Assembly (NCBI GenBank): GCA_035562735.1
Contig: DATMWB010000003.1
Coordinates: 44,232-108,231 of the forward strand
Source: Candidatus Methanoperedens sp.
GTDB taxonomy: Bacteria > Patescibacteriota > Microgenomatia > UBA12405
Length of the DNA stretch: 64,000 nt
Reading direction: 5' to 3'
Shown: piece after piece, positions 14,750-45,618 of the stretch
Layout of the letters: the number at the start of each line of letters is the position of its first letter
How positions within the stretch are numbered: the first letter of the stretch is position 1
Made by a program: the position numbers and the translations under genes
The notes under the pieces: generated by a model
Database searches by the model: none
What the model saw: only the letters and a program-made list of their open reading frames with translations
Told to the model about the DNA's origin: nothing

Positions 14750-15367
14750 TTATTCCTCAACTTTTCCAAACACTTCTCTTAGTGATTCATTTACTGTCTT
14801 ATTTTGAACTTGTTCAATTAGTTGTTGTTGATAAGCTACAATTTCCCCATCGGTAATTCCACCCTTTTCCATTATTGTTTTTGCGTGTACTTCGTCTAAA
14901 ATTGATTCTCCGACCTCATCACCAATTCTACCAAGCAAGTTAATCACTATTGGTTTGATTAAAGCTTTTTGTTCCACTGTCAATTCCTCACTTGTCAATC
15001 CCTCAACAATCCACTCCGTAGTTTTATTTTGTAACTCAGCTGGAGGTTCAAAACATTTTCCCTGAGTACTCCAAACCAAAAAGGCGTCGCTAAAAGATTC
15101 TGCCAACACCATTCCCATTCCACTTCTCAATGCGACCCCGTATAAGTCTGTTTGTTCTGAAACATAATTCTCAACCGAAGCTATAACATCTAAATTATTA
15201 TCAATTCTAGCCACGCCATAGACAAATGCTAGTGATTCTACCCCCAATTTATCAATATTTCCCTTATTCATTTCCGTCACCGCTCTCACATCTTCAATTG
15301 AAGACCTTGCTCCGAGTGGTGTCACTTGCATTCCATCAAATATTGAGCGTGATTGTTCTGCAGCCAT
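14750..15367 (-). CDS. Hypothetical acidic protein (205 aa)
   Basis: A clean ORF divergent from alaS. No recognisable domain. Confidence 0.45.
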   Translation of the reverse strand: MAAEQSRSIFDGMQVTPLGARSSIEDVRAVTEMNKGNIDKLGVESLAFVYGVARIDNNLDVIASVENYVSEQTDLYGVALRSGMGMVLAESFSDAFLVWSTQGKCFEPPAELQNKTTEWIVEGLTSEELTVEQKALIKPIVINLLGRIGDEVGESILDEVHAKTIMEKGGITDGEIVAYQQQLIEQVQNKTVNESLREVFGKVEE

Positions 15368-15388
15368 AGCTTATTGTACCGCATTTCT

Positions 15389-15397
15389 TGCTATAAT
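15389..15397 (+). promoter_or_regulatory. Extended -10 TGcTATAAT 6 nt upstream of the alaS ATG (leaderless geometry)
   Basis: TGCTATAAT at 15389-97 with the ATG at 15404 and no SD. Confidence 0.4.
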
Positions 15398-15403
15398 CTC
15401 CCT

Positions 15404-17278: not shown

Positions 17279-19467
17279 TGGAGCTGTCCTATTATTGGCT
17301 TATTTCAATCACTACCGAAGTTGTTTCAGTGGGTCTGATAAAACGAGGTAATCCAAATACTTTGGCTGCGCTTGGTCCAGAAACCGAATGGCTTCCCGAC
17401 AATCCTGATTCATTTTTACACTCTGTTGATATTTCTTTATCAGAGGCGGCGCAAAAAGCTTCACTTGAGCCCGAACAAGAACCAGAAACAAGTGCTTTTA
17501 TCCTTCCACCAAAGTGGATCGGCAATGACGGTAAAATTTTTCCAGAATATTTAAAATTACTCGAAAACCTTTGTCGTTCTCTAAAATTAAAACCCCTTGG
17601 TTTTATCAGTAACGATGAAGCCTTCATCGAATCTCTTGGAAAAGAGGATTCATTCCCCCCAAGTTTTATTTTGGTATACCTTGGTATAAAAGAATTCTCC
17701 TTGTCCTTGGTATATCTTGGAGAAGTAAAAAAACGTTTTCATCAAGCCTTAAGTAATGATTTTACCCCTCAAGATTTAGAAAATGCTCTAGTTACTGTTC
17801 GTTTGGATTCAGCCTTACCCCCGAGAATTTTAGTCTTTGGTCATTTGGGATTAAGCATTATTGATGATTTAAAAAATTATTCTTGGATAGGTAAAAAAAA
17901 TGTTGAAACCTTTTTACATTTACCTGATGTTGAAGCCTATCAACCAGAGGAACTTTTTTCTTTGTATTGTAAAACCGTCTCCTCTCAAATTGAAAATAAA
18001 GCTCAAAATGCGTCACCCCCCCCAGTAGAAAAAGTTGATATCTCCGATAATAATCTCGAAGAGATAGCCGAGGAACCCATAGAAGAAATTGAAGAAACAG
18101 AAGAAGCTCCTAAAGACGAAAAAATATTTATCGAGGAAGATATAGAAAATTCCATAGATGAAGTTCCTGCGATGGATTTGGGTTTTTCCCAAATTACTGA
18201 CTCTGACTCTATTGTTTTGACTCCACCAACTTCTATTGATACAGACTCTTTTGCCAAGGAAAATATCGAGACTCAGTTACCCCCCTCAAAGTCCAACATA
18301 AATCTCCCTAAATTTTCCTTTCCCAAGATTTCTTTGCCAAGTTTAAAATTCAATCCTTGGTTCCTCTTTCCCTTGGCTCTTTCACCCCTACTTCTGCTCA
18401 TTCCCTACTATCTAATGAAAGCGGAAATTACGATAAATTTTACTCCAGTTGAGATAAACAAAGACTTCAATGTCACTCTTGATTCAACGGCTACTGATGT
18501 TACGACAAGTACCATTCCTGTTCTTAAAAAAACTCTTGATTTAAAGTTTTCAGAGTCTATTGCTACGACTGGTCAAAAAGAGACTGGTGACAAATCAAAA
18601 GGGGAAATTACCCTTTTTAACAAGGCTGACAAAATTCAAAATGCTCCCAAAGGCACAATACTATCTGACAACTCTGGTAAAAAATACGAACTACTCACTT
18701 CCATTCAAGTGCCCGCAAGTACCTTTGACCTCGCTGTTGGTAGTATTGCCATGGGAAAAATCAATGCCACCATAATTGCTAGTGATATTGGACCTGAGTT
18801 TGATTTAAATAAAGACACTCTTTTGTCCTTCAAAGATAACGCCAACTTACTGGCTAAAGTCAATGAAACAATTACCGGTGGAAGTCGACGTCAAATTAGA
18901 GTCGTCTCTTCCGAAGATAAAAGCAAATTAAATAAGGTCGTTACCGATTCTTTACCTACCCGCATTTCAGAAAAGGTTGACGCAGAATCTTCACTTGCTG
19001 GTCTTATGACTGGCACTCTCTTTGTCGACAAAAAACAACTCGATTTTAATCGTGAGATAGGTGAAGAGGCAGATACTCTTCAAGTAAATGCCAACTTGGT
19101 TCTTTCTTTGCTTCAAGTTGACCCCCAACAAAAAGAAAATATCCTAAAAACATTACTAGTAAATAATCAAGATGTTTTAAAATCTATTTCCTCACCCGCT
19201 GATTTTTCTTTTACTTTTAACGCCACCCAAAACACCTCATTAAAATCAACCGGAAAGTTGACCATAACAGGTAAGACACTTCCCAAAATTGATACTGAAA
19301 GCCTCCGTTCACGCTTAGTTGGGAAAAGTATCACTGACGCCTTGAGCATTGTAGATTCACAGTCCCGAGTTTATGATAGGGACATAAAGATAATTCCTTC
19401 CCCTTTCAAATTTCTCAAGCGTTTACCCCCATCTCGAGATAAAATTACCATTATCCAAAAATTTTAA
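17278..19467 (+). CDS. Membrane protein with a PilM/FtsA-like (actin-fold) cytoplasmic N-domain, an acidic linker, one TM helix and a beta-rich extracytoplasmic domain
   Basis: The N-terminal ~160 aa resemble the PilM/FtsA SHS2 region. An E/D-rich linker, a TM helix (WFLFPLALSPLLLLIPYYLM) and a ~350-aa C-terminal domain follow. The fold assignment is by eye only. Confidence 0.5.
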   Translation: MELSYYWLISITTEVVSVGLIKRGNPNTLAALGPETEWLPDNPDSFLHSVDISLSEAAQKASLEPEQEPETSAFILPPKWIGNDGKIFPEYLKLLENLCRSLKLKPLGFISNDEAFIESLGKEDSFPPSFILVYLGIKEFSLSLVYLGEVKKRFHQALSNDFTPQDLENALVTVRLDSALPPRILVFGHLGLSIIDDLKNYSWIGKKNVETFLHLPDVEAYQPEELFSLYCKTVSSQIENKAQNASPPPVEKVDISDNNLEEIAEEPIEEIEETEEAPKDEKIFIEEDIENSIDEVPAMDLGFSQITDSDSIVLTPPTSIDTDSFAKENIETQLPPSKSNINLPKFSFPKISLPSLKFNPWFLFPLALSPLLLLIPYYLMKAEITINFTPVEINKDFNVTLDSTATDVTTSTIPVLKKTLDLKFSESIATTGQKETGDKSKGEITLFNKADKIQNAPKGTILSDNSGKKYELLTSIQVPASTFDLAVGSIAMGKINATIIASDIGPEFDLNKDTLLSFKDNANLLAKVNETITGGSRRQIRVVSSEDKSKLNKVVTDSLPTRISEKVDAESSLAGLMTGTLFVDKKQLDFNREIGEEADTLQVNANLVLSLLQVDPQQKENILKTLLVNNQDVLKSISSPADFSFTFNATQNTSLKSTGKLTITGKTLPKIDTESLRSRLVGKSITDALSIVDSQSRVYDRDIKIIPSPFKFLKRLPPSRDKITIIQKF

Positions 19468-19469
19468 TC

Positions 19470-20201
19470 ATGAGTTATCTCTATGTTAAATCACCACCCA
19501 AGATTACTGCGCCCAAAAAAGTCATGTCGCCGCTGCGTCGAAAGATATTGGCCTCATTTTTTCTTGTTTCCGGCCTTTTGTTGTTTTTTTCAGTGGTCTT
19601 TCCCATAGTCCAATTTCAGCTTGAATATTCCACAAAGTTTAATCAAATTCTCAATCCACTTTCAAACCAATTCTACAACCAAAATGGTTCAGTTTTAGGT
19701 GATTTGAATACTGATTACACCGAATTATCGAATTGGTTTGTTAATGATTCAGAGGTGGTCTCATCTTCTTCACCAAGCTCCCTTATTACTACTTATTATG
19801 TATCCATTCCCAAATTGAAAATTGAGCAAGCGGCAGTCATTTTTGGTAGTACCGATTTGAAAAAATCACTTATCCAATATCCGAGAACCGCGCTTCCAGG
19901 TCAATTTGGATCTCCCGTTATCTTTGGCCATTCTGTGCTCCCTCAATTTTTCAACCCTAAGTCCTATATCACCATTTTTTCAACCTTACACAAATTGAAT
20001 CAAGGAGACGAAATATTTATTGATTATGATCATATCCGTTATAAATACGTCGTTGAAGAAATGTATGAAGTTCAACCTACCGACTTGTCGGTCTTAGAAC
20101 AGCGTTTTGATGGTCGATATCTAACCTTAGTTACCTGTTCTCCTCCTGGTACATATTTGCGCCGCTTAGTAATTAAAGCCCAAATTACCGACAATACATG
20201 A
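19470..20201 (+). CDS. Sortase family transpeptidase
   Basis: It has an N-terminal TM anchor, a catalytic His region (GHSVLP) and the TLVTC active-site motif. Confidence 0.7.
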   Translation: MSYLYVKSPPKITAPKKVMSPLRRKILASFFLVSGLLLFFSVVFPIVQFQLEYSTKFNQILNPLSNQFYNQNGSVLGDLNTDYTELSNWFVNDSEVVSSSSPSSLITTYYVSIPKLKIEQAAVIFGSTDLKKSLIQYPRTALPGQFGSPVIFGHSVLPQFFNPKSYITIFSTLHKLNQGDEIFIDYDHIRYKYVVEEMYEVQPTDLSVLEQRFDGRYLTLVTCSPPGTYLRRLVIKAQITDNT

Positions 20202-20775: not shown

Positions 20776-21698
20776 TGAAAAAACTTTTTTTTGTTTTTCC
20801 CCTAATTTTATTGCTTTTATTTGGACTATACATTTATAGTTTAACCTTTGCTCCCTCATCTGATACCACCAAAAAAGTTTTTGTAATAAATCAAGGAGAA
20901 CCTCTTCTGACCATTGCTTCAAGACTGGAAAAATTAAACTTTGTCCGTAGTCGATACGCCTTTATTGTCTATAGTCGATTGTCGGGTTTAAACACTCAAA
21001 TCAAAGCTGGTACTTTTTATCTTACTTCGTCAGAAAAACTTATCGAGCAAGCCCAAAGATTAACCAAGGGGGGTAGTACCGACTATTGGTTTAAAATTAT
21101 CCCCGGGTCTCGAATTGAAGAATTTTCCCCAGATACTGAATTTACCTCTGCTGCCCTTGGTCTTGAAGGTCAGCTTTTTCCTGATAGCTACTTAATTCCC
21201 AAGTATTACGTATCTTCGCAGATTCTTGACTTAATTTTAAAGAATTTTGAAGATAAGCAACTCGAAGCAAAAGGTAATTCTATCACTCCTTTTTCCGATT
21301 CCGAAGTGCTAGTTTTAGCTTCACTTTTAGAACGTGAAGCCAAAACATTGGCTGATAAAAAAATTATCGCTGGAATAATCAAAAATCGCCTAGACGTAGG
21401 CATGCCTCTTCAAATTGATGCCACTGTCCAATACGCCAAAGACTCTTTAGGCAACCCTGAAAAATACTGGAAGCCAATAAGCAAAGCCGATCTAAGCATT
21501 ATTTCTCCTTATAACACCTATAAAAACAAGGGATTACCCCCATCACCAATTTGTAATCCCGGTTTTGATTCACTAATTGCGGCCTATCATCCAACAGAAT
21601 CTAATTATGTCTACTACATCAATGATAATCAGGGAATTATGCATTACGCCAAAAATTTAGAAGAGCACAACACCAACGTGGCTAAATATTTAAGATGA
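20775..21698 (+). CDS. mltG: Endolytic murein transglycosylase MltG (YceG family)
   Basis: It has an N-terminal TM helix and YceG-like motifs (…KAGTFYL…, …LQIDATVQYA…). Confidence 0.8.
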   Translation: MKKLFFVFPLILLLLFGLYIYSLTFAPSSDTTKKVFVINQGEPLLTIASRLEKLNFVRSRYAFIVYSRLSGLNTQIKAGTFYLTSSEKLIEQAQRLTKGGSTDYWFKIIPGSRIEEFSPDTEFTSAALGLEGQLFPDSYLIPKYYVSSQILDLILKNFEDKQLEAKGNSITPFSDSEVLVLASLLEREAKTLADKKIIAGIIKNRLDVGMPLQIDATVQYAKDSLGNPEKYWKPISKADLSIISPYNTYKNKGLPPSPICNPGFDSLIAAYHPTESNYVYYINDNQGIMHYAKNLEEHNTNVAKYLR

Positions 21699-22261
21699 GA
21701 CAAGCCAAGCTAGTAAAAAGAGAAATTTTATTTGATAAATACGGTAAAAAGTTTATCGTTGATAATTTAGAGCAGCTTGATGGTAAGCCCGACTTTTGGG
21801 CTTATGTCTCCGCCCCCAGAGGTTCAATCATTGTCGCTATCGATAAAGACAAAAACTTAATTCTTGTTCATCAATATCGATATACCTTAAAAGATTTTAC
21901 ATACGAAAACCCTGCTGGAGCTGCCGATAAAAATGAAAATCTTTTAGAAACCGCCAATAGAGAGCTTTTTGAAGAAACAGGCTACAAGTCGAATCAATTT
22001 ATAAATCTTGGAAATTTTCATGATCTCCCCAACGAAACAGATCACCAATGTCAAATATTTTTAGCACTAAATTGCCAATTTATAGAAAAACCCGCCCTTG
22101 ATCCCTTTTCCGAAATATATTGTGAAATGACGACCGAAATTCATCCCTTTATTGATATTTACAATTCACTTGGTCAAGATACCTCACTTATAAAAAGCTC
22201 CGAACATACCGCTGCCATTTTCCTCGCCCATCGCTATCTCTCTACTCATAACTTACTTTAA
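21695..22261 (+). CDS. NUDIX hydrolase
   Basis: It carries the Nudix box (…GAADKNENLLETANRELFEETGY…). Confidence 0.7.
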   Translation: MRQAKLVKREILFDKYGKKFIVDNLEQLDGKPDFWAYVSAPRGSIIVAIDKDKNLILVHQYRYTLKDFTYENPAGAADKNENLLETANRELFEETGYKSNQFINLGNFHDLPNETDHQCQIFLALNCQFIEKPALDPFSEIYCEMTTEIHPFIDIYNSLGQDTSLIKSSEHTAAIFLAHRYLSTHNLL

Positions 22262-22328: not shown

Positions 22329-23417
22329 TTATATTTGATTCTTCTTATTTACCAATTCATTCAAAATATTCCATCTCCTCTTTTTCTCACTCATTGGAAT
22401 TTCATCTTTAAAAAGTTTGGCTGATACCGTTCCCCGTCGGGGGGAATATTTATTTAAATAGGCAATCTCAAAACCAACTTTTTTACAGACATCAACCGTA
22501 TTTTGAAAAGCATCTTCATCTTCACCTGGGAATCCAATAATTATGTCAGTCGAAAATCTGACATCAGCGACTTTGCTCTTTATTTTTTTTACCAAATTTA
22601 AATATTCCTGTTTGGTATAGCCCCGATTCATGTTTTTTAAAACTTTATCGTCGCCGGCTTGGAAGGGGAGATGCAACAACCTATCAATATTTGGATATTT
22701 GGCGATAGTTTCAATCAATTCATCAGAAAAATCCCACGGGTTACTGCTCACAAAGGAAACCTTTTTTAATTTTTTCTTGGCTACCTCTTCCAACAGTTTA
22801 GGGAATAAACTTTTTATTCTTTTTTTACCCATATTTACCAATATTTCATCACCAAAATCACTTCCATAACTATTCACATTTTGCCCAATCAAGACTACTT
22901 CTTCAAAACCTTTTTCAATTGCATCATCTATTTCTTTTAAAATATCCTCCATTTTGCGCGATATCTCTTTTCCGCGAGAATAGGGAACAATACAATAAGA
23001 GCAAAAATTATTACATCCCGAGCTAATTGTAATCAATGCCGCTCTTTTTTTATTGCGTATAGGTTTTAAATCGAAACTTATTTCTTTTGTAGGGAGCAAC
23101 TGATCAACTCCCTTAATAGTTTTTTTAGCAATTGGCACCAAGCATCCAGTCAATATAATGGTTTTTAAGCCCCCTTTCCTCAAGGGGGGTACTCCGGAGG
23201 AGTGGGGGATTTTTTCCCACTTTCTTATTTCATTAATCAATCCGTAGACTCTGTTTTCTGCTGATTCTCTAACCACGCAACTATTAATAATTACCTTATC
23301 AGCCTCTTTCCAATTATCAACAAAAACGTCCCCTTTTTCAGCATAAAATGCCTTAACCCTTTCCGAGTCAGATTCGTTTTGAGCACATCCAAATGTTTTT
23401 AAATAAATTTTACTCAC
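22329..23417 (-). CDS. MiaB/RimO-family radical-SAM methylthiotransferase (short, no obvious TRAM domain)
   Basis: It has an MTTase N-terminal domain (KTFGCAQNESDSE) and a radical-SAM CxxxCxxC (CNNFCSYCIVP). At 362 aa it is shorter than canonical MiaB. Confidence 0.7.
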   Translation of the reverse strand: MSKIYLKTFGCAQNESDSERVKAFYAEKGDVFVDNWKEADKVIINSCVVRESAENRVYGLINEIRKWEKIPHSSGVPPLRKGGLKTIILTGCLVPIAKKTIKGVDQLLPTKEISFDLKPIRNKKRAALITISSGCNNFCSYCIVPYSRGKEISRKMEDILKEIDDAIEKGFEEVVLIGQNVNSYGSDFGDEILVNMGKKRIKSLFPKLLEEVAKKKLKKVSFVSSNPWDFSDELIETIAKYPNIDRLLHLPFQAGDDKVLKNMNRGYTKQEYLNLVKKIKSKVADVRFSTDIIIGFPGEDEDAFQNTVDVCKKVGFEIAYLNKYSPRRGTVSAKLFKDEIPMSEKKRRWNILNELVNKKNQI

Positions 23418-34074: not shown

Positions 34075-34102
34075 AAAAAAGTCCCCTGTATAGGGGACTT
34101 TT
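34075..34102. terminator. Rho-independent terminator after rpsG (bidirectional-type hairpin)
   Basis: AAAAAGTCCCCT-gtat-AGGGGACTTTTT, a 12-bp stem with flanking A and T runs. Confidence 0.75.
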
Positions 34103-34136
34103 TAGTTATTTGTTCTATCATGTATCTGATATATAT

Positions 34137-34150: not shown

Positions 34151-34570
34151 ATGTCGAGGTATGAATTGTTTCAACACTTAGTTGGAGAAGAAATAAGAAA
34201 AAGTAATCCCCATGGCAAATTACAGGTTGTTGGCGATACCTCTACTTTAGAAGACGACGAAAGACTTTTCCATATCGCTGGGGAACTCATTTCAAATTGT
34301 GCCGAAAAGGGAGCTGAAGAGATAACTTTAACTCTAACACCACGGCTAATAGTCGTAGAAGACAATTTAGTTCACACCCCAGAAGAAGTGGAAAAAATTC
34401 TTGAAAATATTCAGCAACCACTACCAGTAACCAATAAAGCTATCGTTGAAAACGGTCAATCAATTCGTGGTTTTGGTATTTTTAGTGTTCGAAACACTCT
34501 CCTTGAAATTGGTGCTTCCTTGTTTTATGAACATCGTGATGGTCGAATAATCGCTAGAGTTGAATTATAA
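34151..34570 (+). CDS. Small GHKL (histidine-kinase-like) ATPase domain protein, anti-sigma-factor/SpoIIAB-like size
   Basis: 139 aa with an N-box-like ELISNCAEKG and a G-box-like GFGIFSVRNTLLEIGASL. There is no sensor or DHp domain. Confidence 0.5.
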   Translation: MSRYELFQHLVGEEIRKSNPHGKLQVVGDTSTLEDDERLFHIAGELISNCAEKGAEEITLTLTPRLIVVEDNLVHTPEEVEKILENIQQPLPVTNKAIVENGQSIRGFGIFSVRNTLLEIGASLFYEHRDGRIIARVEL

Positions 34571-34615
34571 GAAAGAAATCTGGTTAGACTATTTTGTTTT
34601 GTGTTAACATAATTT

Positions 34616-36004
34616 ATGTCATTATTTTCAAAATCAAAAGTTGTTCTCTGGCCAAAAGATGAAAGCCTAGAAATATATTTAGACCGAAGTGACAACAACA
34701 CCTTTTCTTTTGAAACAAATCTTTGGAGTGAACAAGGTGATGATAGTTTAAATAGTTTAGCCAGCTTTTTTAAACAAAATAAAATATCCGAGGCATATGT
34801 TCTCCTAAATGACACTTATGTTATTACCAAGACTTTTATTTACGATTCTGTTGTCACTAAGCTCGATCCAAATGAAGTCATAACCTTGGCCAAAGATTCA
34901 ATAGATTTCAAAATATCACCCGAGTCTGTTACCTTTGATCTTGAGTCTGAAGGAAATCGGACTTTAGTTCGAACAAGAATTTTCAATCAGGATAAATTTC
35001 AAATACTTACTGCCAATCTCCAAAAAATTGGTCTAAAAGTACTTGATTTTGAAACCGTATCTTCATCTGTGGCCAAGCTTTACACCAATTTTGATAACGG
35101 TCAGTATTTTTTCTTTTACCCCATAAATACCCACGATTACGTTGCTATCCTAAGCAACAAAGGAAATGTTTACTTAACCTCAATTATCAAAAAATCTCTT
35201 CCGGAACTTAAGAAGTTATTAAATTACGCTCAAGCCTATTTTAGCAACAAGGAGCCAACCCAATATTTGCCAGATACCAATTACAACGAATCCGAAATTT
35301 GTCAACGTTTTCAAAAAGCGTCAAATCTACCTCTACCAGTTCTATCTTTCTTTATTGGCCAATCGAAGCCTGTTGCTGATATAATAAAGACAGAAACAAC
35401 CCAGACGCTTCCCCCAACGCCTACTTCTAATATTATCGATTCAACAAATAATCCCTTACCAACTATGGAAAACAACAAAAAAAGTCTTTTACCAATAATT
35501 GCTGTTTTTATCATCACCGCAATTGTTGCCTCAATTATTGTTTGGTTTATATTAAACCAAAACAAAGATACTGATTTAAATCCAGGTGGTGAAAACCCGG
35601 CAGAAGAAATAAGTAGTACCCCAATGGCAACCGAAGAACCAACTCCTACTATTGCTGAGCTTAGTAAAACCCTAAAAATACAGGTGCTAAATGCCACCGA
35701 CATAAATGGTCAAGCAGCCACTATCAAAACTGAATTGACCAACCTCGGTTTCACTAGTATCAATACAGGTAACAGCAAAGAAGCAGCAACCAGCAACCAA
35801 ATTCAAATAAAAAAGACCATTGTTCCGGACTATTTTCTTAAAAACGTGGCTCAATTTTCGACAGCAACAGTCAGTGAGTTATCTGAAACTTCAACCTATG
35901 ATGTTGTCTTTATTATTGGGGTAGATCTCAAAACTGGAAGTGCCGCTCCTACAGCGACAACTCCCACTACAACTAGTACCCCATCAGCTACTCCCACTAA
36001 TTAG
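34616..36004 (+). CDS. Membrane protein with a PilM-like cytoplasmic N-domain, one TM helix and a C-terminal LytR_C domain
   Basis: The N-terminal ~290 aa resemble PilM (…FQILTANLQKIGLKVLDFETVSSSVAKLY). A TM helix (LLPIIAVFIITAIVASIIVWFIL) and a LytR_C-like C-terminus (LKIQVLNATDINGQAATIKTELTNLGF…VVFIIGVDL) follow. Confidence 0.5.
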   Translation: MSLFSKSKVVLWPKDESLEIYLDRSDNNTFSFETNLWSEQGDDSLNSLASFFKQNKISEAYVLLNDTYVITKTFIYDSVVTKLDPNEVITLAKDSIDFKISPESVTFDLESEGNRTLVRTRIFNQDKFQILTANLQKIGLKVLDFETVSSSVAKLYTNFDNGQYFFFYPINTHDYVAILSNKGNVYLTSIIKKSLPELKKLLNYAQAYFSNKEPTQYLPDTNYNESEICQRFQKASNLPLPVLSFFIGQSKPVADIIKTETTQTLPPTPTSNIIDSTNNPLPTMENNKKSLLPIIAVFIITAIVASIIVWFILNQNKDTDLNPGGENPAEEISSTPMATEEPTPTIAELSKTLKIQVLNATDINGQAATIKTELTNLGFTSINTGNSKEAATSNQIQIKKTIVPDYFLKNVAQFSTATVSELSETSTYDVVFIIGVDLKTGSAAPTATTPTTTSTPSATPTN

Positions 36005-36021
36005 TAATTAAAAAAATCACT

Positions 36022-37041
36022 ATGAAAATCCTTGTTACAGGAGGTTGCGGTTTTATTGGTAGTAATTTTATCCATTATTGGTTGTCGCGACATCCCGATG
36101 ACACCATTGTAAATTTAGATAAATTGACCTATGCTGCCAATCCAGAATCACTACGTGATTTAGAAAAAAATCCTCATTATCAATTTATCAAAGCTGACAT
36201 TTGTGATGAGGTTGCGGTCGACAAAGTTATGTCCGAAGGTATCGAGCTCATAATTCATTTTGCCGCCGAATCACATGTTGATCGTTCTATCGATGATCCA
36301 CTTCTTTTTGTAAAGACCAACGTTTTAGGAACTTACACCCTTTTAAATTCCGCAAAAAAACACGGCAACATCCGTTTTCACCATGTTTCCACTGACGAAG
36401 TTTTTGGAGCTCTCCCCTTAGATACTGAGGAAAAATTCACTGAAGATACTCACTATGATCCCCGAAGTCCATACTCAGCTTCAAAAGCATCTTCAGATCA
36501 CTTTGTTAGATCTTTCTATCATACATTTAATTTGCCAGTGACTATCAGTAATTGTTCAAATAACTATGGTGCCTTTCAATCTCCAGAAAAATTTGTGCCA
36601 AGAATGATTACTAATCTTATGGATGGTAAAAAAATTCCTGTCTATGGAGATGGTCTCTATGTCCGAGATTGGCTTTATGTTGACGACCATTGTTCTGCCA
36701 TCGAAGCTATTGTCTTAAATGGAAAAATAGGTCAGTCATACAATATTGGCGGTCTTGTCAAAGACTATTCCAACCTAGAAGTTGCCAAGACAATTCTTCA
36801 AATTATGGGTAAAACCGATGCTGAACTTGAATTTGTAGCCGATAGACCTGGTCATGATCGTCGCTATGCTGTCTCTTGGGAAAAAATTCATAATGAATTG
36901 AATTGGTCTCCCAGTCTTACCTTTGAAGAGGGGATAACAAAAACAATCAACTGGTATCAGCAAAACGAAACATGGTGGCGCGAAGCTAAGACCGAAGCTG
37001 AAGCTTTCTATGTCCGACTCAACGCTTCAAAAAACAAATAA
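36022..37041 (+). CDS. rfbB: dTDP-glucose 4,6-dehydratase
   Basis: MKILVTGGCGFIGSNF, YxxxK and an extended SDR fold. Confidence 0.88.
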   Translation: MKILVTGGCGFIGSNFIHYWLSRHPDDTIVNLDKLTYAANPESLRDLEKNPHYQFIKADICDEVAVDKVMSEGIELIIHFAAESHVDRSIDDPLLFVKTNVLGTYTLLNSAKKHGNIRFHHVSTDEVFGALPLDTEEKFTEDTHYDPRSPYSASKASSDHFVRSFYHTFNLPVTISNCSNNYGAFQSPEKFVPRMITNLMDGKKIPVYGDGLYVRDWLYVDDHCSAIEAIVLNGKIGQSYNIGGLVKDYSNLEVAKTILQIMGKTDAELEFVADRPGHDRRYAVSWEKIHNELNWSPSLTFEEGITKTINWYQQNETWWREAKTEAEAFYVRLNASKNK

Positions 37042-37045
37042 TTTG

Positions 37046-37060
37046 TTATACTGAAGCTAT
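37046..37060 (+). promoter_or_regulatory. Leaderless promoter/start module TTATACTGAAGCTAT (second identical copy)
   Basis: TGtTATACT at 37044-52 is followed 8 nt later by the rfbC ATG at 37061. The 15-mer is identical to 12837-12851. Confidence 0.35.
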
Positions 37061-37621
37061 ATGATGAAATTTACCCCACTCTCCATTCCTGGACTAGTTC
37101 TTGTTGAACCTCAAGTATTTGGTGATGAAAGAGGTTTTTTTATGGAAACTTACAGTAAAAAAGAGTTTGCTGAAGCTGGTATAAATGTTGATTTTGTTCA
37201 AGACAACCACTCCCGATCTACCCAAGGGGTGCTCCGCGGACTTCATTTTCAAAAACCACCTTTTGCCCAAGCAAAACTTGTTAGAGTTACTCAAGGTGAA
37301 GTTTTGGATGTGGCTGTTGATATTCGACCCGATTCTCCGACCTTTGGTAAATGGGATTCAGCGCATCTTACCGCTGAAAACAAAAAAATGTTTTATCTTC
37401 CCGAAGGTTTTGCACATGGATTTTATGTCTTAACCGAAACAGCCGATTTCCAATACAAGTGTACCAACTTCTACAATAAGGAATCTGAAGGCGGTCTACT
37501 TTGGAATGACCCTGATATCAATATTGCTTGGATGGCTCCAAGTCCCACTCTTTCCGACAAAGATAAAAACTGGCCAAATCTAAAAGATATTGAAGCCGAG
37601 CTTAAAACCCTCAAGTGGTAA
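37061..37621 (+). CDS. rfbC: dTDP-4-dehydrorhamnose 3,5-epimerase
   Basis: Cupin RmlC motifs (…RGFFMETY…, …RGLHFQ…). Confidence 0.88.
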   Translation: MMKFTPLSIPGLVLVEPQVFGDERGFFMETYSKKEFAEAGINVDFVQDNHSRSTQGVLRGLHFQKPPFAQAKLVRVTQGEVLDVAVDIRPDSPTFGKWDSAHLTAENKKMFYLPEGFAHGFYVLTETADFQYKCTNFYNKESEGGLLWNDPDINIAWMAPSPTLSDKDKNWPNLKDIEAELKTLKW

Positions 37622-37684
37622 CAATAAATTTAACATTAAAAAATCTTATACTTTTTAATGAATTTTCAATAAACAACTTTTTGT

Positions 37685-37716
37685 CCCCCTTATTAAGGGG
37701 GATTAAGGGGGTTTAA
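37685..37716 (+). terminator. G/C hairpin (CCCCCTTA…TAAGGGGG), a duplicated GGGGG arm and then TTT after rfbC
   Basis: CCCCCTTATTAAGGGGGATTAAGGGGGTTT. Confidence 0.3.
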
Positions 37717-37739
37717 ATTATTAATTTAAAAATTTTTTT

Positions 37740-38624
37740 ATGAAAATTATTGGCACAGGTCTCACCGGTTTGGTTGGTTCAAGAATCATTGAGCTTAATC
37801 CAGATGTTGAATTCATCAATATTTCTATTGAAACTGGGATCAGTATCCTTGATCCTATTCAGCTAGAAAAAGTGTTTACCGACAATCCTGACGCAGATGC
37901 GGTTTTACATCTGGCTGCCTTTACTGACACCAACGGTGCCTGGGAGCAAAACGGTGATAAAAATGGTCTATGTTATCAGCTCAATGTCACCGGAACTCAA
38001 AATATTGTTGATTTGTGTAAAAAATACGATAAATATTTAATTCATATTTCCACCGACTTTGTTTTTGATGGAAAAAAAGTTGGAAAATATACCGAAGATG
38101 ACCTTCCAAATCCTATCGAATGGTACGGTCAAACCAAATATTTTTCTGAAAAAGTTGTCCTAGATTCAGGCATTTTATCCTCTATTGTTAGACTGGCTTT
38201 TCCTTACCGAGCCAATTTTGAACCCAAAAAAGATATCATCCGCAAAATTATTGATGGTTTCAAAGCTGGTAAGCTCTATCCCCAATGGACCGACCATTTT
38301 ACCAGTCCAGTCTTTATTGACGATATAGCCAATGCCCTAAAAGTATTTTTTGAAAAAAAACCTATCGGAATCTATCACTTAGTTGGTTCCTCTTCGCAGT
38401 CACCTTTTGAAATGTGTCAATTCATCGCAGAAGTTTTTGGATTTGATAAAAGTATAGTTCAAGCCAGCACCTTGGCAGATTATGTCAAATCATTACCCGA
38501 AGGTTCACGCCCATGGCAATACAATTTATCCTTAAGTAACGAAAAAATAAAATCTCTCGGTATTCAAATCAAAACCTTAAAAGAAGGTCTTGAAGAGATG
38601 AAAAGACAGACGGAAAACACTTGA
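37740..38624 (+). CDS. rfbD: dTDP-4-dehydrorhamnose reductase-like NAD(P)-dependent epimerase/dehydratase
   Basis: It has a Rossmann N-terminus (GTGLTGLVGS) and the YGQTKYFSE catalytic motif typical of RmlD. Confidence 0.65.
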   Translation: MKIIGTGLTGLVGSRIIELNPDVEFINISIETGISILDPIQLEKVFTDNPDADAVLHLAAFTDTNGAWEQNGDKNGLCYQLNVTGTQNIVDLCKKYDKYLIHISTDFVFDGKKVGKYTEDDLPNPIEWYGQTKYFSEKVVLDSGILSSIVRLAFPYRANFEPKKDIIRKIIDGFKAGKLYPQWTDHFTSPVFIDDIANALKVFFEKKPIGIYHLVGSSSQSPFEMCQFIAEVFGFDKSIVQASTLADYVKSLPEGSRPWQYNLSLSNEKIKSLGIQIKTLKEGLEEMKRQTENT

Positions 38625-38647
38625 TGGTTTAGTTGTTACAATTAGAT

Positions 38648-39742
38648 ATGGATAGAGAACCTCCAGCTTCTGTATTTTCTAATGCAAACAAACTGTCTGC
38701 ATTTCCAAAACAAGTCGAATCAGTTTTAAGAGGTGAAACTATTGCTCCAATCACCCTTGAAATTCAACCTAGCTCCGGTTGTAATCACGCCTGTCCCAAA
38801 TGTTCCGGAAAATTAAATAAAGATTCTCCTTATTATGCCGAAATAAGAAAACAATTTACATTTATAAACCCCGATGTGGTTAAGGGAATTGTCGATTCTC
38901 CAAGAGCTCCATTAGGTGTAGTTTTTGCTGGTGATACAGGTGACCCTCTTCTTCATCCCCAGATTGAGTCACTTATAGACATTGTCAGCGATAAAAACAT
39001 TTCTATCTCAGTGATTACTAATGGCCAGGCATTAAATCAGAGTATTTCCCAAAAAATTGTGCAAAGATGTCAGGGTGTAAGGGTCTCATTAGATGCTTTC
39101 GACGCAAAGTCACACCAATTGACACATGGTAGCAATGGTGAACAATGGGAAAGTTTATTAGAAAACATTAGAGAGCTTGTCAGTCTACGGGATAATTCTC
39201 CGAAAAAAAAAGAATGTTTAATTGGTATTGGTTATTTGACCGCAAAACACACACTCGGTGGAATCATTGAGGCTACAAAACTTGCAAAAGATCTTGGAGT
39301 AGATTATATCCATTTTCGCCCATTTTTTTATTCTAATGATGAAATTAGTCAGGAAATTATCGAAAGTTGTAAAGCTTTAGAAGATGAAAATTTCTCTGTA
39401 ATATTTCCCGGCGCCAAATATCAAAATTCAAAAGATAGAAACTATCCAACGTGTAAGGCTGCAAATTTTGTAACAGTTATAAATCCTAAAGGAGAAGCAT
39501 ATATTTGTTGTCATCACATAGGACAAGAAAATGCCAAAATTGATACCATTGGAACAAATCCAGAAGATTGGGATAAATTTGTTATAAGTGATAAAAGACG
39601 CGATCTAATCCAAAAATTTAATTTAACCGAATGTCCGCCATTTTGTCGTCTTCATAGTCATAATCAAACTTTATCCAAAGGAGTTTCCGTAGATTTATTA
39701 AACCAGCCTGTATCCGCCAGTCACCACGCCAAGTTTTTATAA
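38648..39742 (+). CDS. Radical SAM domain protein (possible sugar-modifying enzyme)
   Basis: It has a CxxxCxxC (SSGCNHACPKCSG) and additional C-terminal cysteines (CCHH…CPPFC). The first ATG is at 38648, while the track ORF begins at TTG 38633. Confidence 0.65.
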   Translation: MDREPPASVFSNANKLSAFPKQVESVLRGETIAPITLEIQPSSGCNHACPKCSGKLNKDSPYYAEIRKQFTFINPDVVKGIVDSPRAPLGVVFAGDTGDPLLHPQIESLIDIVSDKNISISVITNGQALNQSISQKIVQRCQGVRVSLDAFDAKSHQLTHGSNGEQWESLLENIRELVSLRDNSPKKKECLIGIGYLTAKHTLGGIIEATKLAKDLGVDYIHFRPFFYSNDEISQEIIESCKALEDENFSVIFPGAKYQNSKDRNYPTCKAANFVTVINPKGEAYICCHHIGQENAKIDTIGTNPEDWDKFVISDKRRDLIQKFNLTECPPFCRLHSHNQTLSKGVSVDLLNQPVSASHHAKFL

Positions 39743-39777
39743 TTATTTCTATTTTTCCCAGCCTTCCATTAAAAGTG

Positions 39778-39806
39778 TTGTTTTTTGCACAATTATAGGA
39801 TATAAT
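39778..39806 (+). promoter_or_regulatory. Candidate promoter TTGTTT-17-TATAAT upstream of the G+C-rich orphan gene
   Basis: A -35-like box at 39778-83 and a perfect TATAAT at 39801-06. An SD (AAGGAGAG, 39846-53) precedes ATG 39858. Confidence 0.4.
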
Positions 39807-39857
39807 ACCAATGCTTGTTTTAGCGTCGCATCTCATTTCCTAAATAAGGAGAGCTTG

Positions 39858-40535
39858 ATGAGCGACAATCGTTCTTTGACAATCGAAGGTGGGTCGACCG
39901 TGACCATCAGTTTCAAGACTGATCCCGCCAATGATTGGCAGCTAACGCTGCAAAACGTTCGGGAAGAGGAAGGCGGAATTTTCGCCGACAATTTTCTTCT
40001 TGCCCGGAAAAACGGTCAACATTTCTTTGCCAAACTCGTAAAAGTTTTGGGGATCAAAGCCGACGGATCAGAATTTCCGTACTGGCTTCCCAGGATTTTT
40101 GACATCGGGAATGGCTACAAATGTGGAGATGTCGTAATTCAGTTTCGCAAACACCCCCAGTCGAAACGCTGGATGGTTGATGTGGAATCAGAATACGGCA
40201 GCAAGTCTCCCGATCTCCTAGAAAAGGTTATCCGAATCAGTCGTTCTTCGCTTGACAATATCAAGCAGGCTGTTAAGAAAACCGTCAAGGAAACCGGACA
40301 AGACTGGCTCAACTCTCAGCGTATTGGTGGAGACAAAGTTTCCATGCATTGCGTTGACGCAGGTTGGTCACCACAGCTTTTTGCTCAGGGCAAGGTAATG
40401 GATGTTTTCGACTTCGTTGCAAATTCCCATGATGGTCCCGGGAAAATCGCACTAGTTGAAGCACTTCAACACCTTCCCACCCCCATCGCCAAGCAAGTCG
40501 CGATGTGTATCATTGTTCCTCCAACCGAGGAATAA
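39858..40535 (+). CDS. Hypothetical protein, G+C-rich orphan gene
   Basis: A 226-aa ORF with a strong SD and markedly higher G+C than its neighbours. No recognisable domain. Confidence 0.5.
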   Translation: MSDNRSLTIEGGSTVTISFKTDPANDWQLTLQNVREEEGGIFADNFLLARKNGQHFFAKLVKVLGIKADGSEFPYWLPRIFDIGNGYKCGDVVIQFRKHPQSKRWMVDVESEYGSKSPDLLEKVIRISRSSLDNIKQAVKKTVKETGQDWLNSQRIGGDKVSMHCVDAGWSPQLFAQGKVMDVFDFVANSHDGPGKIALVEALQHLPTPIAKQVAMCIIVPPTEE

Positions 40536-40631
40536 AAAACTAGCCAGATGCTAGAACAAGCATGCCGACACCCCATGTGTTGACGTTTTAAGCTGACGTC
40601 TCCTACGTTCGGTCGAAGCACAATTTTTTAT

Positions 40632-40689
40632 GTGTCCTCTTCTCTGATTTCAGACTTCGGTCTGTTTAAAAAATCAGGGAAGGGGACAC
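40632..40689. promoter_or_regulatory. Nested hairpin with a 19-bp outer stem (2 G·U if RNA) enclosing a 5-bp stem with a UUCG tetraloop
   Basis: GTGTCCTCTTCTCTGATTT-[CAGAC-TTCG-GTCTG]-tttaaaa-AAATCAGGGAAGGGGACAC. No U-run follows in either orientation, so it is not a canonical terminator. Confidence 0.5.
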
Positions 40690-40698
40690 AGTTATATT

Positions 40699-41934
40699 TC
40701 AAATTCTCTTCCCCACTCTCTCTCCCTCTCTCACAGCATAATTAATACCCCTGTCTTCCGGATATATTTGTGCAAAGTTAACATGAATAACTTTATTTTC
40801 TACATTAGTTTTTCTCTCCGTCTTGTCATTATAATTTTTGGTAACTATATGTTGTGCATATTTAAATCTAAAAACATGTTTTTCAATAAGTCCTTTTTCA
40901 CTAAATTCAGGAAAAATTTTCTTTAAATAGTCAAAAAAATCTTTTTCAATTAAAGAGTCTTTGCATGTAAAATATTTGTGATTTTGGGGCAAATAAGTCC
41001 CCATATAATAAATATTTTTTCCGCCATAATTCTCTGTCCCCATTAGGTTTGTATGTTGAATAAAGGCCAAAAAAGGGGAGTTGATATCATTGATATTATG
41101 CCAATAATAAGGACTTAAACTCTGTTTTGAAGAAAAAACCATCGTCACCGCTCCCAAATAATCAATACCATCTAATGGCGCCGAGCTAATAATTCTATCG
41201 AATCCGTCATCGCGAGTGTAATCACGAAGCAATCTTTCTGGATTGGTCTCAATATTCGTCTTTATCTCTCCTCCCAACTCTTTTATTCTTTTTTCCAATT
41301 CATCAATAATTATTTGAAATCCTCCTTCCATATAACCTAGATACTCTTTCCCCCTTTCACTCGAATTACCTCTTGTATGAATTCTTGCCCACATCCATGC
41401 CATTGAAATATCTTGATATCTATCGTTAAATTTACCTTTTAATAGTGGCTCCCAGACTACTTTATAAGCATTTTCCCCACACCATTTTCTCATCCACTCA
41501 TAAGCCAAAACATCTTCAAATTTCTTCCAATTCTTTTCTCTTTCTAGATAGATTTTAACTAGTCCCAATCTCAACTTATCAAATAAATTTAGAGGTTTAA
41601 ATTTTAATAAATCTATTACCCCTGCAAACGGATATATAGTTCCACTGTAATATAGAGCAGTTTTACTCTCAAACCATTTTAACTTATTTTCCAAACCCAA
41701 CTCCTTGATCAAAGCAATTATTTCTTTGTCAGTTTTAAAAATGTGATGATAAGCTTTCTCTAAATTCGTCCCTTCAATTTTAAATCCCCCCAACAATCCA
41801 CCCAAACTATCACTTCTCTCAAAAATTATTACCTTATGACCCTTTTGAAGCATTCTGTATCCCACCACCAAACCTGTTATTCCTCCGCCGATTATTGCAA
41901 TTTTTTGTTTTTTCACTTCCAAATTATATCTCAA
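40699..41934 (-). CDS. FAD-dependent oxidoreductase (amine-oxidase / UDP-galactopyranose-mutase-like Rossmann family)
   Basis: It has the dinucleotide-binding motif IAIIGGGITGLVVG…E…GGL at the N-terminus and is about 410 aa. It sits in a sugar-nucleotide context. Confidence 0.6.
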   Translation of the reverse strand: MRYNLEVKKQKIAIIGGGITGLVVGYRMLQKGHKVIIFERSDSLGGLLGGFKIEGTNLEKAYHHIFKTDKEIIALIKELGLENKLKWFESKTALYYSGTIYPFAGVIDLLKFKPLNLFDKLRLGLVKIYLEREKNWKKFEDVLAYEWMRKWCGENAYKVVWEPLLKGKFNDRYQDISMAWMWARIHTRGNSSERGKEYLGYMEGGFQIIIDELEKRIKELGGEIKTNIETNPERLLRDYTRDDGFDRIISSAPLDGIDYLGAVTMVFSSKQSLSPYYWHNINDINSPFLAFIQHTNLMGTENYGGKNIYYMGTYLPQNHKYFTCKDSLIEKDFFDYLKKIFPEFSEKGLIEKHVFRFKYAQHIVTKNYNDKTERKTNVENKVIHVNFAQIYPEDRGINYAVREGERVGKRI

Positions 41935-41949
41935 TCAGCTTATAACGGG

Positions 41950-41958
41950 TGTTAGAAT
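41950..41958 (+). promoter_or_regulatory. Extended -10 TGtTAGAAT 7 nt upstream of ATG 41966 (leaderless geometry)
   Basis: TG-n-TAGAAT with the ATG at 41966 and no SD. Confidence 0.35.
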
Positions 41959-41965
41959 TAAAAAT

Positions 41966-42214
41966 ATGGAAAATAAACAAAATAAAAAGAATTTTTTAGC
42001 CTTGGGTCGAACTCATATGGCTAATGAAAGAACTATGTTATCTTATTGGCGCACCGCTCTAACATTTTTAGTTCTTGGCGCCTATCTAATCAGACAAACT
42101 CCCGCCGAAGAATTTATATTACCCGCCACAATTGCTATTTTATTTGGTGTTGTACTCTTTATTTTTGGAACAGTTAAGTTCTATCAATTTAAAAAAATTA
42201 TCAACAACAGTTAG
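41966..42214 (+). CDS. DUF202/YidH-family small membrane protein
   Basis: It has the ANERTMLSYWRTALTFLVLG signature and two TM helices. Confidence 0.55.
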   Translation: MENKQNKKNFLALGRTHMANERTMLSYWRTALTFLVLGAYLIRQTPAEEFILPATIAILFGVVLFIFGTVKFYQFKKIINNS

Positions 42215-42264: not shown

Positions 42265-42300
42265 CAAAAAAAGCGGGTGTCTTGCCCGTTTTTATTTTTT
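42265..42300. terminator. A-run / GCGGG…CCCG hairpin / T-run (bidirectional-type)
   Basis: AAAAAAGCGGGTGTCTTGCCCGTTTTTATTTTTT. Confidence 0.45.
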
Positions 42301-44622: not shown

Positions 44623-45618
44623 ATGCCAGGATTTTTCGATAGATTAAAACCCCAACCAAAAAATATAGCTCCAGCTTCCGAACCAGTTATTTCCACCCCA
44701 GTTGAAGTTACAAAACCTGTTGAAGTAACTCCTCCAGTAGAACCAGATTTCAAAAACAGTCAAATAGGTACTCCATTTGAAACCCCTATTGCCTTTGCTC
44801 AAAGATATTATGAAGCTGTGAAGACAACTGGTGAATTAACTCCAGAAATGCAAACAAAAATGGCCGCCTTTACCGAAGTATCAGGTATTCTGGCTGACGG
44901 TTGGCGATCAGAACAGGAAGAAAATGCTACTCTCGAAAAATCAAAAAGACCATCAGAAAAATTAAAAGATGCTCTAAAGGCTGGTATAAGACCAAATGGT
45001 TCATATTCGGTTGATACTGCAGGAAGAGAAATCGATTGGGCTTTCCAGACTATTGTTGGTGGCGCTGAAACCAAGCTAAGTCAGGAAAAAATAGTCTCTG
45101 ACAAATCTCCAGAAGATATTGTCGCCGATTTATTTAACAGCGGTGGTCTTATCAGAAGAATCGATATGGGTAATCTAATGAGAGGTTATGCAGGAGCTTT
45201 AGAGGAACAATCTCGCGATGGTGGTTTTTTAAGGACAGAACAAATTGCTATGTGGAAATCACTTGGTGTCATTCCAGCTGAAGCTCCGAATGGTGGATCT
45301 TTTCCACTAGGTCAGGAAAATGCCTATCTAATTAGACTCTTAAAAAGAGATGGACAGACAACCGAGACGGAAGTTAAAACTGAAGATGGTCAAGCCCTAA
45401 TAGAATACAAAAGACCAACTAAAGTTGAAGGAGTCTCCGCTGTCATTAGTATAAGAAAAGATTTACTAGATAGTCATCAAAGAGTCTCGAATCCAGACGG
45501 CTACCAAATGGTAAATGGATTTCGCCTCGAATTAAGCCCCGAATTTTATACAGGGACATTAGGTATTAAACCTACGGAGGGGGTATCTGTGACACCAACA
45601 GAAAAACCAACCGAGTAA
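44623..45618 (+). CDS. Hypothetical protein inserted between fusA and tuf
   Basis: A 331-aa ORF bounded by terminators on both sides. Its N-terminus is Pro/Val/Glu-rich, and no domain is recognised. Confidence 0.5.
   Translation: MPGFFDRLKPQPKNIAPASEPVISTPVEVTKPVEVTPPVEPDFKNSQIGTPFETPIAFAQRYYEAVKTTGELTPEMQTKMAAFTEVSGILADGWRSEQEENATLEKSKRPSEKLKDALKAGIRPNGSYSVDTAGREIDWAFQTIVGGAETKLSQEKIVSDKSPEDIVADLFNSGGLIRRIDMGNLMRGYAGALEEQSRDGGFLRTEQIAMWKSLGVIPAEAPNGGSFPLGQENAYLIRLLKRDGQTTETEVKTEDGQALIEYKRPTKVEGVSAVISIRKDLLDSHQRVSNPDGYQMVNGFRLELSPEFYTGTLGIKPTEGVSVTPTEKPTE

Follow-up and report, generated by a model that had tools for sequence, protein, structure and literature searches.

Background

Radical S-adenosylmethionine (SAM) enzymes that act on sugar rings include DesII, the cytosylglucuronate decarboxylase BlsE, BtrN and SpeY. 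DesII deaminates TDP-4-amino-4,6-dideoxy-D-glucose and dehydrogenates TDP-D-quinovose via hydrogen abstraction at C3' (PDB 8HZY/8HZV; PMC11434129). BtrN and SpeY are twitch dehydrogenases, in which a single auxiliary cluster serves as the electron sink. Here we describe a radical SAM gene that lies directly after rmlB, rmlC and rmlD in a stretch of 64,000 nucleotides from a patescibacterial genome (GenBank contig DATMWB010000003.1), henceforth called the window. Its product may, like these enzymes, act on a sugar ring and, like BtrN and SpeY, may use a single auxiliary cluster. It is set apart from BlsE by a score of 28.9 bits against the BlsE model TIGR04466 (cutoff 400), and the substrates of BlsE, BtrN and SpeY are not nucleoside-diphosphate (NDP) sugars. 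A literature search for radical SAM enzymes with nucleotide sugars as substrates brought up only papers on peptides that are made by ribosomes and modified after translation (RiPPs); a radical SAM enzyme that resembles DesII and has a twitch motif, from an uncharacterized family, would be new as a variation on a known theme.

Among defence systems, radical SAM enzymes are also found in the prokaryotic viperins (pVip), Ophion and HXS. The family of the window protein resembles these in a suspected nucleotide-type chemistry, in weak matches to the pVip profile, in its rare, patchy and accessory occurrence, and in the presence of relatives in defence-like islands. The viperins differ by the lack of a twitch motif, and Ophion by its architecture, which joins the radical SAM protein to a PHP protein and a phosphoribosyltransferase (PRTase). 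A further likeness is to the signalling defence systems Thoeris, CBASS, Pycsar and Kongming: in a sister clade of the window's lineage the enzyme pairs either with a SIR2 NADase-like protein or with a small protein with several transmembrane (TM) helices, which recalls the swapping of effectors in those systems. A radical SAM protein, however, stands where those systems have a TIR domain, cyclase or deaminase as the conserved enzyme, and the SIR2 and TM partners are absent from the window.

Results and discussion

The rml genes and the appended radical SAM gene

The block of genes that includes the radical SAM gene, and the features that bound it downstream, are as follows (positions are those of the window):

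34616-36004, + strand: membrane protein with a LytR_C domain (PF13399, 34.6 bits)
36022-37041, + strand: rmlB, dTDP-glucose 4,6-dehydratase (TIGR01181, 473.9 bits against a cutoff of 365.1; PF16363, 269 bits)
37061-37621, + strand: rmlC, dTDP-4-dehydrorhamnose 3,5-epimerase of the cupin fold (TIGR01221, 249.9 bits against a cutoff of 155.75; PF00908, 259.6 bits)
37740-38624, + strand: rmlD, divergent dTDP-4-dehydrorhamnose reductase (PF04321, RmlD_sub_bind, 145 bits; cutoff 27)
38648-39742, + strand: radical SAM gene, accessory and predicted to be the last of the rml unit, 364 amino acids (PF04055)
39793-39806, + strand: conserved promoter-like element TTATAGGATATAAT ahead of unk226, the 3' boundary of the rml-radical SAM unit
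39858-40535, + strand: orphan gene, here called unk226, a separate transcription unit

As the original prediction had stated, rmlB, rmlC and rmlD are contiguous and followed by the radical SAM gene. All four open reading frames (ORFs) are on the + strand. The LytR_C gene is the first of this same-strand block and stops 17 nt before rmlB. The third rml gene scores below the TIGR01214 equivalog cutoff (144.5 vs 224.05 bits); it is accepted as a divergent RmlD because its best matches among the solved structures of the PDB are all dTDP-4-dehydrorhamnose reductases, with alignments that run from end to end, and because the STD and YxxxK motifs are conserved. RmlB, RmlC and RmlD of the dTDP-L-rhamnose pathway are therefore present within the window. 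The same prediction noted the lack of rmlA, and three approaches agree with it: a motif scan found no GxGTRL-type motif inside any ORF of the 64 kb, tblastn with two Patescibacteria NTP_transferases against the window gave a best E of 0.2, and Pfam searches with 29 window ORFs revealed no RmlA. Pfam searches with the 20 upstream ORFs recovered housekeeping genes only and no glycosyltransferase, and no NTP_transferase is listed in the 21-kb syntenic loci of three related genomes. The absence of rmlA holds for the 64 kb window and says little about the genome.

The most likely start of the radical SAM gene is the ATG at 38648, 23 nt past the rmlD stop, because all homologues and the independent gene calls begin at MDR... 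A mechanically called ORF begins at an alternative TTG at 38633, which is less likely and would yield 369 instead of 364 residues; residue numbers below follow this 369-residue ORF. In every genome of the window's clade the gene shares the strand of rmlD and follows it at a spacing of 2-33 nt, and neither a terminator-like site ahead of it nor a promoter of its own is visible. The gene is thus predicted to be the last of a LytR_C-rmlB-rmlC-rmlD transcription unit and to be co-transcribed with it.

Four related lineages were compared, namely that of the window (with the loci L017, L071 and L072), L001, L002 (with L003) and L068-L070. The whole synteny from rpoC to fusA is common to all four, at identities of 89-95% for rpoC and 93-98% for fusA. 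In three of them rmlD is directly followed by the radical SAM gene, which is missing in L068-L070, where rmlB-rmlC-rmlD are followed after 110 nt by unk226. In the window and L001, the sequence past the radical SAM stop can be aligned to that past the rmlD stop of L068, so that presence and absence correspond to a clean indel, the size of one gene, where the rml unit ends at its 3' side. The promoter-like element (39793-39806) has the same sequence in the window, L001 and L068, with or without the radical SAM gene, and the Shine-Dalgarno sequence of unk226 falls inside the aligned stretch in both the window and L068. Evidently, RmlB, RmlC and RmlD work without the radical SAM enzyme. Where the gene is present across the window's clade, its products are 71-92% identical and free of frameshifts.

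The interval between rmlD and a flavoprotein gene further downstream also varies in content. The window and L001 carry the radical SAM gene and unk226, and L068-L070 carry unk226 alone. In L002, a 71%-identical relative, the radical SAM gene is retained and unk226 is replaced (11268-15927) by three NUDIX-like genes on the opposite strand, that is a NUDIX protein and two NUDIX paralogues, and by further genes that include a 693-aa protein with no family match. The gene unk226 has its own conserved TATAAT and Shine-Dalgarno region (39793-39853) and occurs independently of the radical SAM gene, being present without it in L068-L070 and absent from the radical SAM-bearing L002. It has no Pfam, NCBIfam or PADLOC match, and a search of 5.8 billion proteins recovered only 7 clusters, all Shapirobacteria-like, with Candidatus Shapirobacteria as the nearest named organism, which marks the source as a Shapirobacteria-like bacterium of the candidate phyla radiation; its AlphaFold2 model (pLDDT 55.6) is too poor for fold comparison. 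The possibility that unk226 is a divergent NUDIX protein or a member of another partner family of the radical SAM enzyme (see below) was rejected, as hidden Markov models (HMMs) of the SIR2, 4-TM and NUDIX partners all miss it.

Sequence and structural features of the radical SAM protein

The window protein matches PF04055 at 42.1 bits against a gathering cutoff of 29.5, and its AlphaFold model (pLDDT 84.8, pTM 0.87) has the partial TIM-barrel core fold. The motif C50-x3-C54-x2-C57 ('CNHACPKC') is invariant in an alignment of 24 family members. The C-terminal region contains the pattern C274-x12-G287-x4-C292(C293) ... C334-x3-C338, in which the same alignment shows no variation at C274, C292, C334 and C338 and almost none at C293; further conservation is seen at C195 (invariant), at C146 and C246 (nearly invariant) and in a C-terminal H-A-x-F-L motif. 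The earlier description of the protein, as a radical SAM enzyme with CNHACPKC and C-terminal Cys clusters, is thus confirmed. Every invariant residue of the family is intact in the window protein. Together these features suggest, with some reserve on our part, that the product is a working radical SAM enzyme from a rare and uncharacterized family, with one SAM-cleaving [4Fe-4S] site at C50, C54 and C57.

The C274...C292 element fits the first element of the SPASM/twitch domains (C-x9-15-G-x4-C) and is followed by further cysteines of the cluster-ligating kind. The full seven-Cys SPASM motif is lacking, the CX2CX5CX3C block being reduced to CX3C; this suggests one auxiliary cluster, as in twitch domains. 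The SPASM model PF13186 does not match the window protein at E <= 0.01 and does match more distant members of the family. Of the SPASM/twitch domain that had been proposed as a point to check, the twitch-like part therefore stands and the full SPASM part does not. The protein probably carries one auxiliary [4Fe-4S] cluster, for which C274, C292/C293, C334 and C338 are the predicted ligands.

None of the curated NCBIfam families claims the protein. Its best scores are to a tungsten-cofactor maturase (67 bits, cutoff 380) and to ScmF (61 bits, cutoff 400). With the viperin model NF038283 the protein reaches 42.3 bits, where 180 would be needed. When the radical SAM protein, unk226, RmlD and the partner proteins of relatives were scanned with PADLOC, the only match was a generic one to the viperin core (pVip, 48 bits), confined to the N-terminal residues 49-165 of the radical SAM protein. 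There is no RiPP recognition element (RRE, PqqD-like) domain in the protein, which has about 40 N-terminal residues ahead of the core, and no small precursor-like ORF between rmlD and unk226; both observations argue against a RiPP maturase.

At the level of structure, DesII is the best match to the radical SAM model by two independent methods; in Foldseek it heads the list at E 1e-14, and the proteins that come next have 5e-11. The two proteins are further alike in that both genes accompany genes of the dTDP-4-keto-6-deoxyhexose pathway, and a DegT aminotransferase, the DesI-type partner, is fused to or encoded beside distant relatives of the window protein. Unlike DesII, the window protein is about 100 residues shorter and has the invariant twitch-like Cys motif.

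A predicted role in sugar-nucleotide tailoring

The gene order, spacing, motifs, fold similarity and accessory status, and the genomic partners of the family, are observed; the substrate, the reaction, what becomes of the product and any envelope role are inferred. In the reading that we favour, whose probability we place somewhat short of one half, the protein is an optional tailoring enzyme that acts on an NDP sugar, here a dTDP-6-deoxyhexose. In favour of it are the position after rmlD, the sugar-nucleotide and NUDIX partners found in the family (see below), the lack of RiPP-maturase features and the intact invariant residues. The gene would have been appended in the window's lineage as the optional last gene of the LytR_C-rmlB-rmlC-rmlD unit, and the target would be the sugar ring of the dTDP-6-deoxyhexose made by RmlB, RmlC and RmlD, either dTDP-L-rhamnose or its 4-keto precursor. 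A 5'-deoxyadenosyl radical would abstract the hydrogen of a sugar C-H bond, as DesII does at C3'. The resulting alpha-hydroxyalkyl radical might then be oxidised via the auxiliary cluster to a keto-sugar, as in BtrN or in the action of DesII on TDP-quinovose, or might alternatively undergo elimination or epimerisation.

Several observations weigh against this reading. The likeness to DesII is one of fold only, at 13-15% identity, and among PDB sequences DesII is retrieved neither by phmmer (E <= 1) nor by the family profile (E <= 0.1); as there is no detection at the sequence level, the window protein may be said to work like DesII but not to be a member of its family. The paper on the DesII structure mentions no auxiliary cluster (PMC11434129). 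No DegT/DesI-type aminotransferase is found among the window ORFs scanned, such enzymes being seen only beside distant relatives, and the substrate of DesII therefore cannot be made locally. The ORFs scanned also include no rmlA, glycosyltransferase or transporter. L068-L070, close relatives with rpoC 94% identical, keep rmlB, rmlC and rmlD without the radical SAM gene, and the varying content of the interval after rmlD means that the gene could be adjacent merely through a hot spot of insertion. Its linkage to rml genes goes back to one evolutionary event in a shallow lineage. Finally, the nearest relatives outside this lineage (35-43% identity) sit outside sugar operons, with a SIR2 or 4-TM partner. 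The analogy to DesII drawn in the original prediction thus survives in the best structural match and in the sugar-nucleotide partners of the family, and fails where detectable homology to DesII is concerned. The suggestion that the product is destined for the cell envelope is unsupported, as the window ORFs hold no glycosyltransferase or flippase.

Distribution and phylogeny of the family

A word-indexed search of 5.8 billion proteins recovered 62 relatives of the radical SAM protein. A pattern-based scan of one genome per species in 185,579 species found 10 loci, which is a lower bound because two peptide patterns are all that the scan detects. When 1.84 billion cluster representatives were searched in full with a HMMER profile, about 20 clusters scored above 350 bits and 712 clusters had E <= 1e-30. 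The tight family is rare and phyletically patchy, with hosts in the Patescibacteria, Anaerolineales, Bacteriovoracaceae, Magnetococcales, Cloacimonadota, Omnitrophota, Planctomycetota, Gammaproteobacteria and Nanoarchaeota.

A neighbour-joining tree (Kimura distances, 200 bootstrap replicates, rooted by a distant member) recovers the window's clade in 200/200 replicates. A second clade, in which the radical SAM gene is linked to SIR2, 4-TM or NUDIX genes and which includes the Patescibacteria copies L005 and L011, is recovered in 162/200. The two group together in 199/200, with relatives from glycan clusters outside. The window's clade thus appears to be a sister of the SIR2/4-TM-linked clade and not nested in it, with a glycan-associated next outgroup, although with so simple a method and so distant a root the tree is only indicative.

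Sugar-nucleotide links in the wider family

To place the gene in context, ORFs were called and clustered in the neighbourhoods of 63 loci. RmlC homologues are confined to the window's own clade, and in about 50 loci outside the window's lineage the radical SAM gene never has rmlB or rmlC as a neighbour. The original prediction made linkage of orthologs to rml genes a test of the sugar reading; such linkage is restricted to one shallow lineage, which goes partway to refuting that reading. In the wider family, NDP-sugar enzymes recur as neighbours or fusion partners. An FdtA-like cupin, a NUDIX-like protein and the radical SAM enzyme form a cassette in L005 (in the order radical SAM-cupin-NUDIX) and in L025 (cupin-NUDIX-radical SAM), with cupin PF05523 scores of 46 and 58 bits and a NUDIX-family HMM match of E 8e-38. 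The FdtA/WxcM cupins, like RmlC, act on dTDP-4-keto-6-deoxyhexoses, and NUDIX proteins, the commonest partners across the family, hydrolyse compounds in which a nucleoside diphosphate is linked to another moiety. A nucleotidyltransferase of the RmlA/GMPPB type adjoins the radical SAM gene in the Patescibacteria loci L005 and L011; it is given less weight because it is part of the conserved backbone of those genomes. The combination of FdtA and NTP_transferase in L005 was considered as independent proof of a dTDP-sugar operon and was downgraded, the cupin and NUDIX genes travelling with the radical SAM gene as a cassette.

More distant relatives, at about 30% identity, are found among genes for GT2, GT4, methyltransferase, PMT_2 and SDR proteins, and a DegT aminotransferase adjoins the radical SAM gene in L046 and L067. 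Two fusions are of the same kind. In P0134 (1631 aa) a radical SAM-SPASM protein is fused to a DegT/DnrJ/EryC1 aminotransferase, which places a DesI/DesII-like pair in one chain. P0060 (L067:6001-7710) is a fusion of a cytidylyltransferase (CTP_transf_3) with a radical SAM-SPASM protein, encoded in a NeuB/PIG-L/WbqC cluster. This cluster, of the nonulosonic-acid type, also holds a second radical SAM protein of 680 aa.

SIR2, 4-TM and NUDIX cassettes, and alternative functions

A different set of partners is found in the nearest relatives. In ten distinct loci from unrelated phyla (L004 = L009, L006, L007, L010, L012, L024, L032, L064, L065 and L066) a protein of about 690 aa with an N-terminal SIR2_2 domain is encoded directly upstream of the radical SAM gene, whose start its gene often overlaps by 4-11 nt. 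In five others (L018, L019, L022, L026, L029) this protein is replaced by a 4-TM protein of about 235-275 aa, for which four membrane helices are predicted. The radical SAM gene has a NUDIX or NUDIX-like neighbour in L002/L003, L004, L005, L011 (weak), L018, L025, L038 and L065. The top match of the profile search, P0070, is a natural SIR2-radical SAM fusion of 1035 residues, encoded as a single ORF in contig L073, and its N-terminal 650 residues match the SIR2 partner with E 1e-85. A profile of the SIR2 partner matches FAM118B and the Kongming NADase KomC, and the Asn and His at the expected catalytic positions are invariant. Representative cassettes lie at L004:7951-11749, L065:3917-7663, L064:4011-7119 and L073:5651-8758.

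The flanks of several of these cassettes are of mobile or defence type, with HNH, Mrr_cat, resolvase, FRG and phage integrase genes in L007, resolvases, FRG and a TraG-like ATPase in L064, IS110 and TCAD9 in L065, HicB, AAA_21 and integrase in L066, and HTH_3/Peptidase_M78 and ThiF in L073. The cassette of L004 is not island-like and lies between an ArnT-like glycosyltransferase and electron-transfer flavoprotein (ETF) genes. In L065 a 372-aa protein encoded next to the NUDIX gene of the cassette (7660-8778, - strand) has a sub-threshold match to the Macro domain (E 0.0065; 16.9 vs 22 bits); a Macro-type protein would fit an ADP-ribose-type chemistry, but the match is too weak to rely on. By analogy, a conserved enzyme with a swappable SIR2 or membrane partner would follow the pattern of signalling defence systems. 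No system of SIR2, radical SAM and NUDIX proteins was found in the literature searched, in which Ophion and HXS have different architectures, and the SIR2 (or 4-TM)-radical SAM(-NUDIX) cassette is a candidate for an undescribed defence system.

These cassettes bear on the alternative that survives best, which we nevertheless consider rather unlikely for the window: a conflict or defence-type enzyme unrelated to rhamnose, which modifies a nucleotide or a molecule of the NAD/ADP-ribose type (compare viperin, or the signal-making enzymes of Thoeris and CBASS) and sits after rmlD only because this is a variable insertion spot, its SIR2 or 4-TM partner having been lost or replaced. The interchangeable partners and the fusion in the sister clade, the NADase-like features of the SIR2 protein, the mobile or defence-type flanks, the rare and patchy distribution, the presence or absence of the gene among close relatives and the changing content of the interval are all consistent with such a role. 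Nevertheless, the partner HMMs find no SIR2 or 4-TM (+NUDIX) cassette near the window gene or SIR2 or 4-TM partner in its clade, and the only NUDIX gene of the window (21695-22261) is 16 kb away, although L002 of the same clade has NUDIX genes beside its radical SAM gene. The gene is also tightly appended to rmlD with no visible promoter of its own, the matches to viperin are weak, the window's clade branches separately from the SIR2/4-TM clade with relatives from glycan clusters as the next outgroup, and the literature searched holds no defence system of this architecture.

The two themes of the family, NDP-sugar chemistry with a fold like that of DesII and BlsE, and an accessory, conflict-like behaviour, are compatible, since ADP-ribose and NAD also belong to the nucleoside-diphosphate sugars. 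A second alternative, which we consider unlikely, would join them: the family may make an immune signal or antiviral compound derived from an NDP sugar, which in most bacteria would be sensed by, or work together with, the SIR2 NADase or the 4-TM effector and be trimmed by the NUDIX protein, and the window copy would be a variant fed by the dTDP-rhamnose pathway in a symbiont with a reduced genome.

A third alternative, that the enzyme is a maturase of the SPASM/twitch type (like anSME, SkfB or SuiB) which modifies the SIR2 or 4-TM partner in relatives and some unlinked protein here, appears quite improbable. In its favour, the best weak NCBIfam matches are to maturase families, and the tight coupling, or even fusion, to one specific protein would suit an enzyme and its substrate; a defence system with a radical SAM-matured effector, HXS, is also on record (PMC13128918). 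Against this, the window offers neither an RRE/PqqD-like domain nor a precursor-like small ORF nor a partner protein, unk226 being a separate unit with its own promoter that occurs independently of the radical SAM gene. The four or five C-terminal cysteines are not those of the seven-Cys SPASM motif, and a small-molecule nucleotide chemistry is what the NUDIX, cupin, DegT and nucleotidyltransferase partners seen again and again would indicate. The idea of a passenger gene, left from a lost cassette and now decaying or without function, is barely credible: one close lineage has indeed lost it, but elsewhere the ORF is intact, keeps every invariant residue of the family and is conserved in three of the four related lineages at 71-92% identity across the clade with no frameshifts.

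The surrounding region

The window has a low GC content of about 0.38, and its genes are nearly all housekeeping genes. The radical SAM gene lies inside the str operon, where the order is rpoB, rpoC, rpsL, rpsG, an insert of about 8.2 kb, and then fusA and tuf. The str operon (rpsL-rpsG-fusA-tuf) is normally compact. It is broken here at two points, by the insert between rpsG and fusA (34151-42214), which is common to the related genomes, and by an ORF of 331 aa between fusA and tuf (44623-45618), which has no family match and is missing at the same spot in L001 and L068. Further features of the insert and its edges are:

34076-34103, strand not set: terminator-like hairpin after rpsG at the left edge of the insert (12-bp stem, both strands)
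34151-34570: stand-alone HATPase_c ORF of 139 aa, the first of the insert (26.8 bits against a cutoff of 26.4)
40699-41934, - strand: flavin amine-oxidase-like gene (PRK07233/amine-oxidase-like)
42269-42293, + strand: terminator-like hairpin before fusA, where the insert ends on the right (11-bp stem and then a T-run)

The HATPase_c ORF consists of that domain alone, with neither a HisKA nor a sensor part, and is absent from the syntenic loci L001, L002 and L068. The LytR_C gene that follows it is kept at the same position in all three of these loci. The flavoprotein gene is kept in all four related genomes and also matches the PADLOC model C3a186 ('C-3',4' desaturase') at 132 bits, and the last gene of the insert encodes a DUF202 protein.

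Elsewhere in the window there is a second radical SAM gene, of the MiaB/RimO type (22329-23417, - strand; UPF0004 and Radical_SAM), whose product is only 362 aa long and has no detectable TRAM domain. In the stretch 17278-20201 a 729-aa ORF without a Pfam match lies directly upstream of a sortase gene (19470-20201), and it may encode a sortase-anchored surface protein. Scans of the 64 kb for tRNA genes and for Rfam families (gathering score) detected neither a tRNA gene nor any Rfam match, despite the presence of rpoBC and of the str, S10, spc and alpha operon regions.

Conclusions

To our knowledge, the glycobiology of the candidate-phyla bacteria is almost unknown. If the window enzyme does tailor a dTDP-6-deoxyhexose, as in the reading that we tentatively favour, it would represent a second structural class of DesII-like radical SAM sugar enzymes, one with an auxiliary cluster, and would be a source of strain-level variation in the surface or metabolites of these bacteria. 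The cassette of SIR2 or 4-TM, radical SAM and, often, NUDIX proteins in its relatives, if it is anti-phage, would tie sugar-nucleotide radical chemistry to NAD-depleting immunity.

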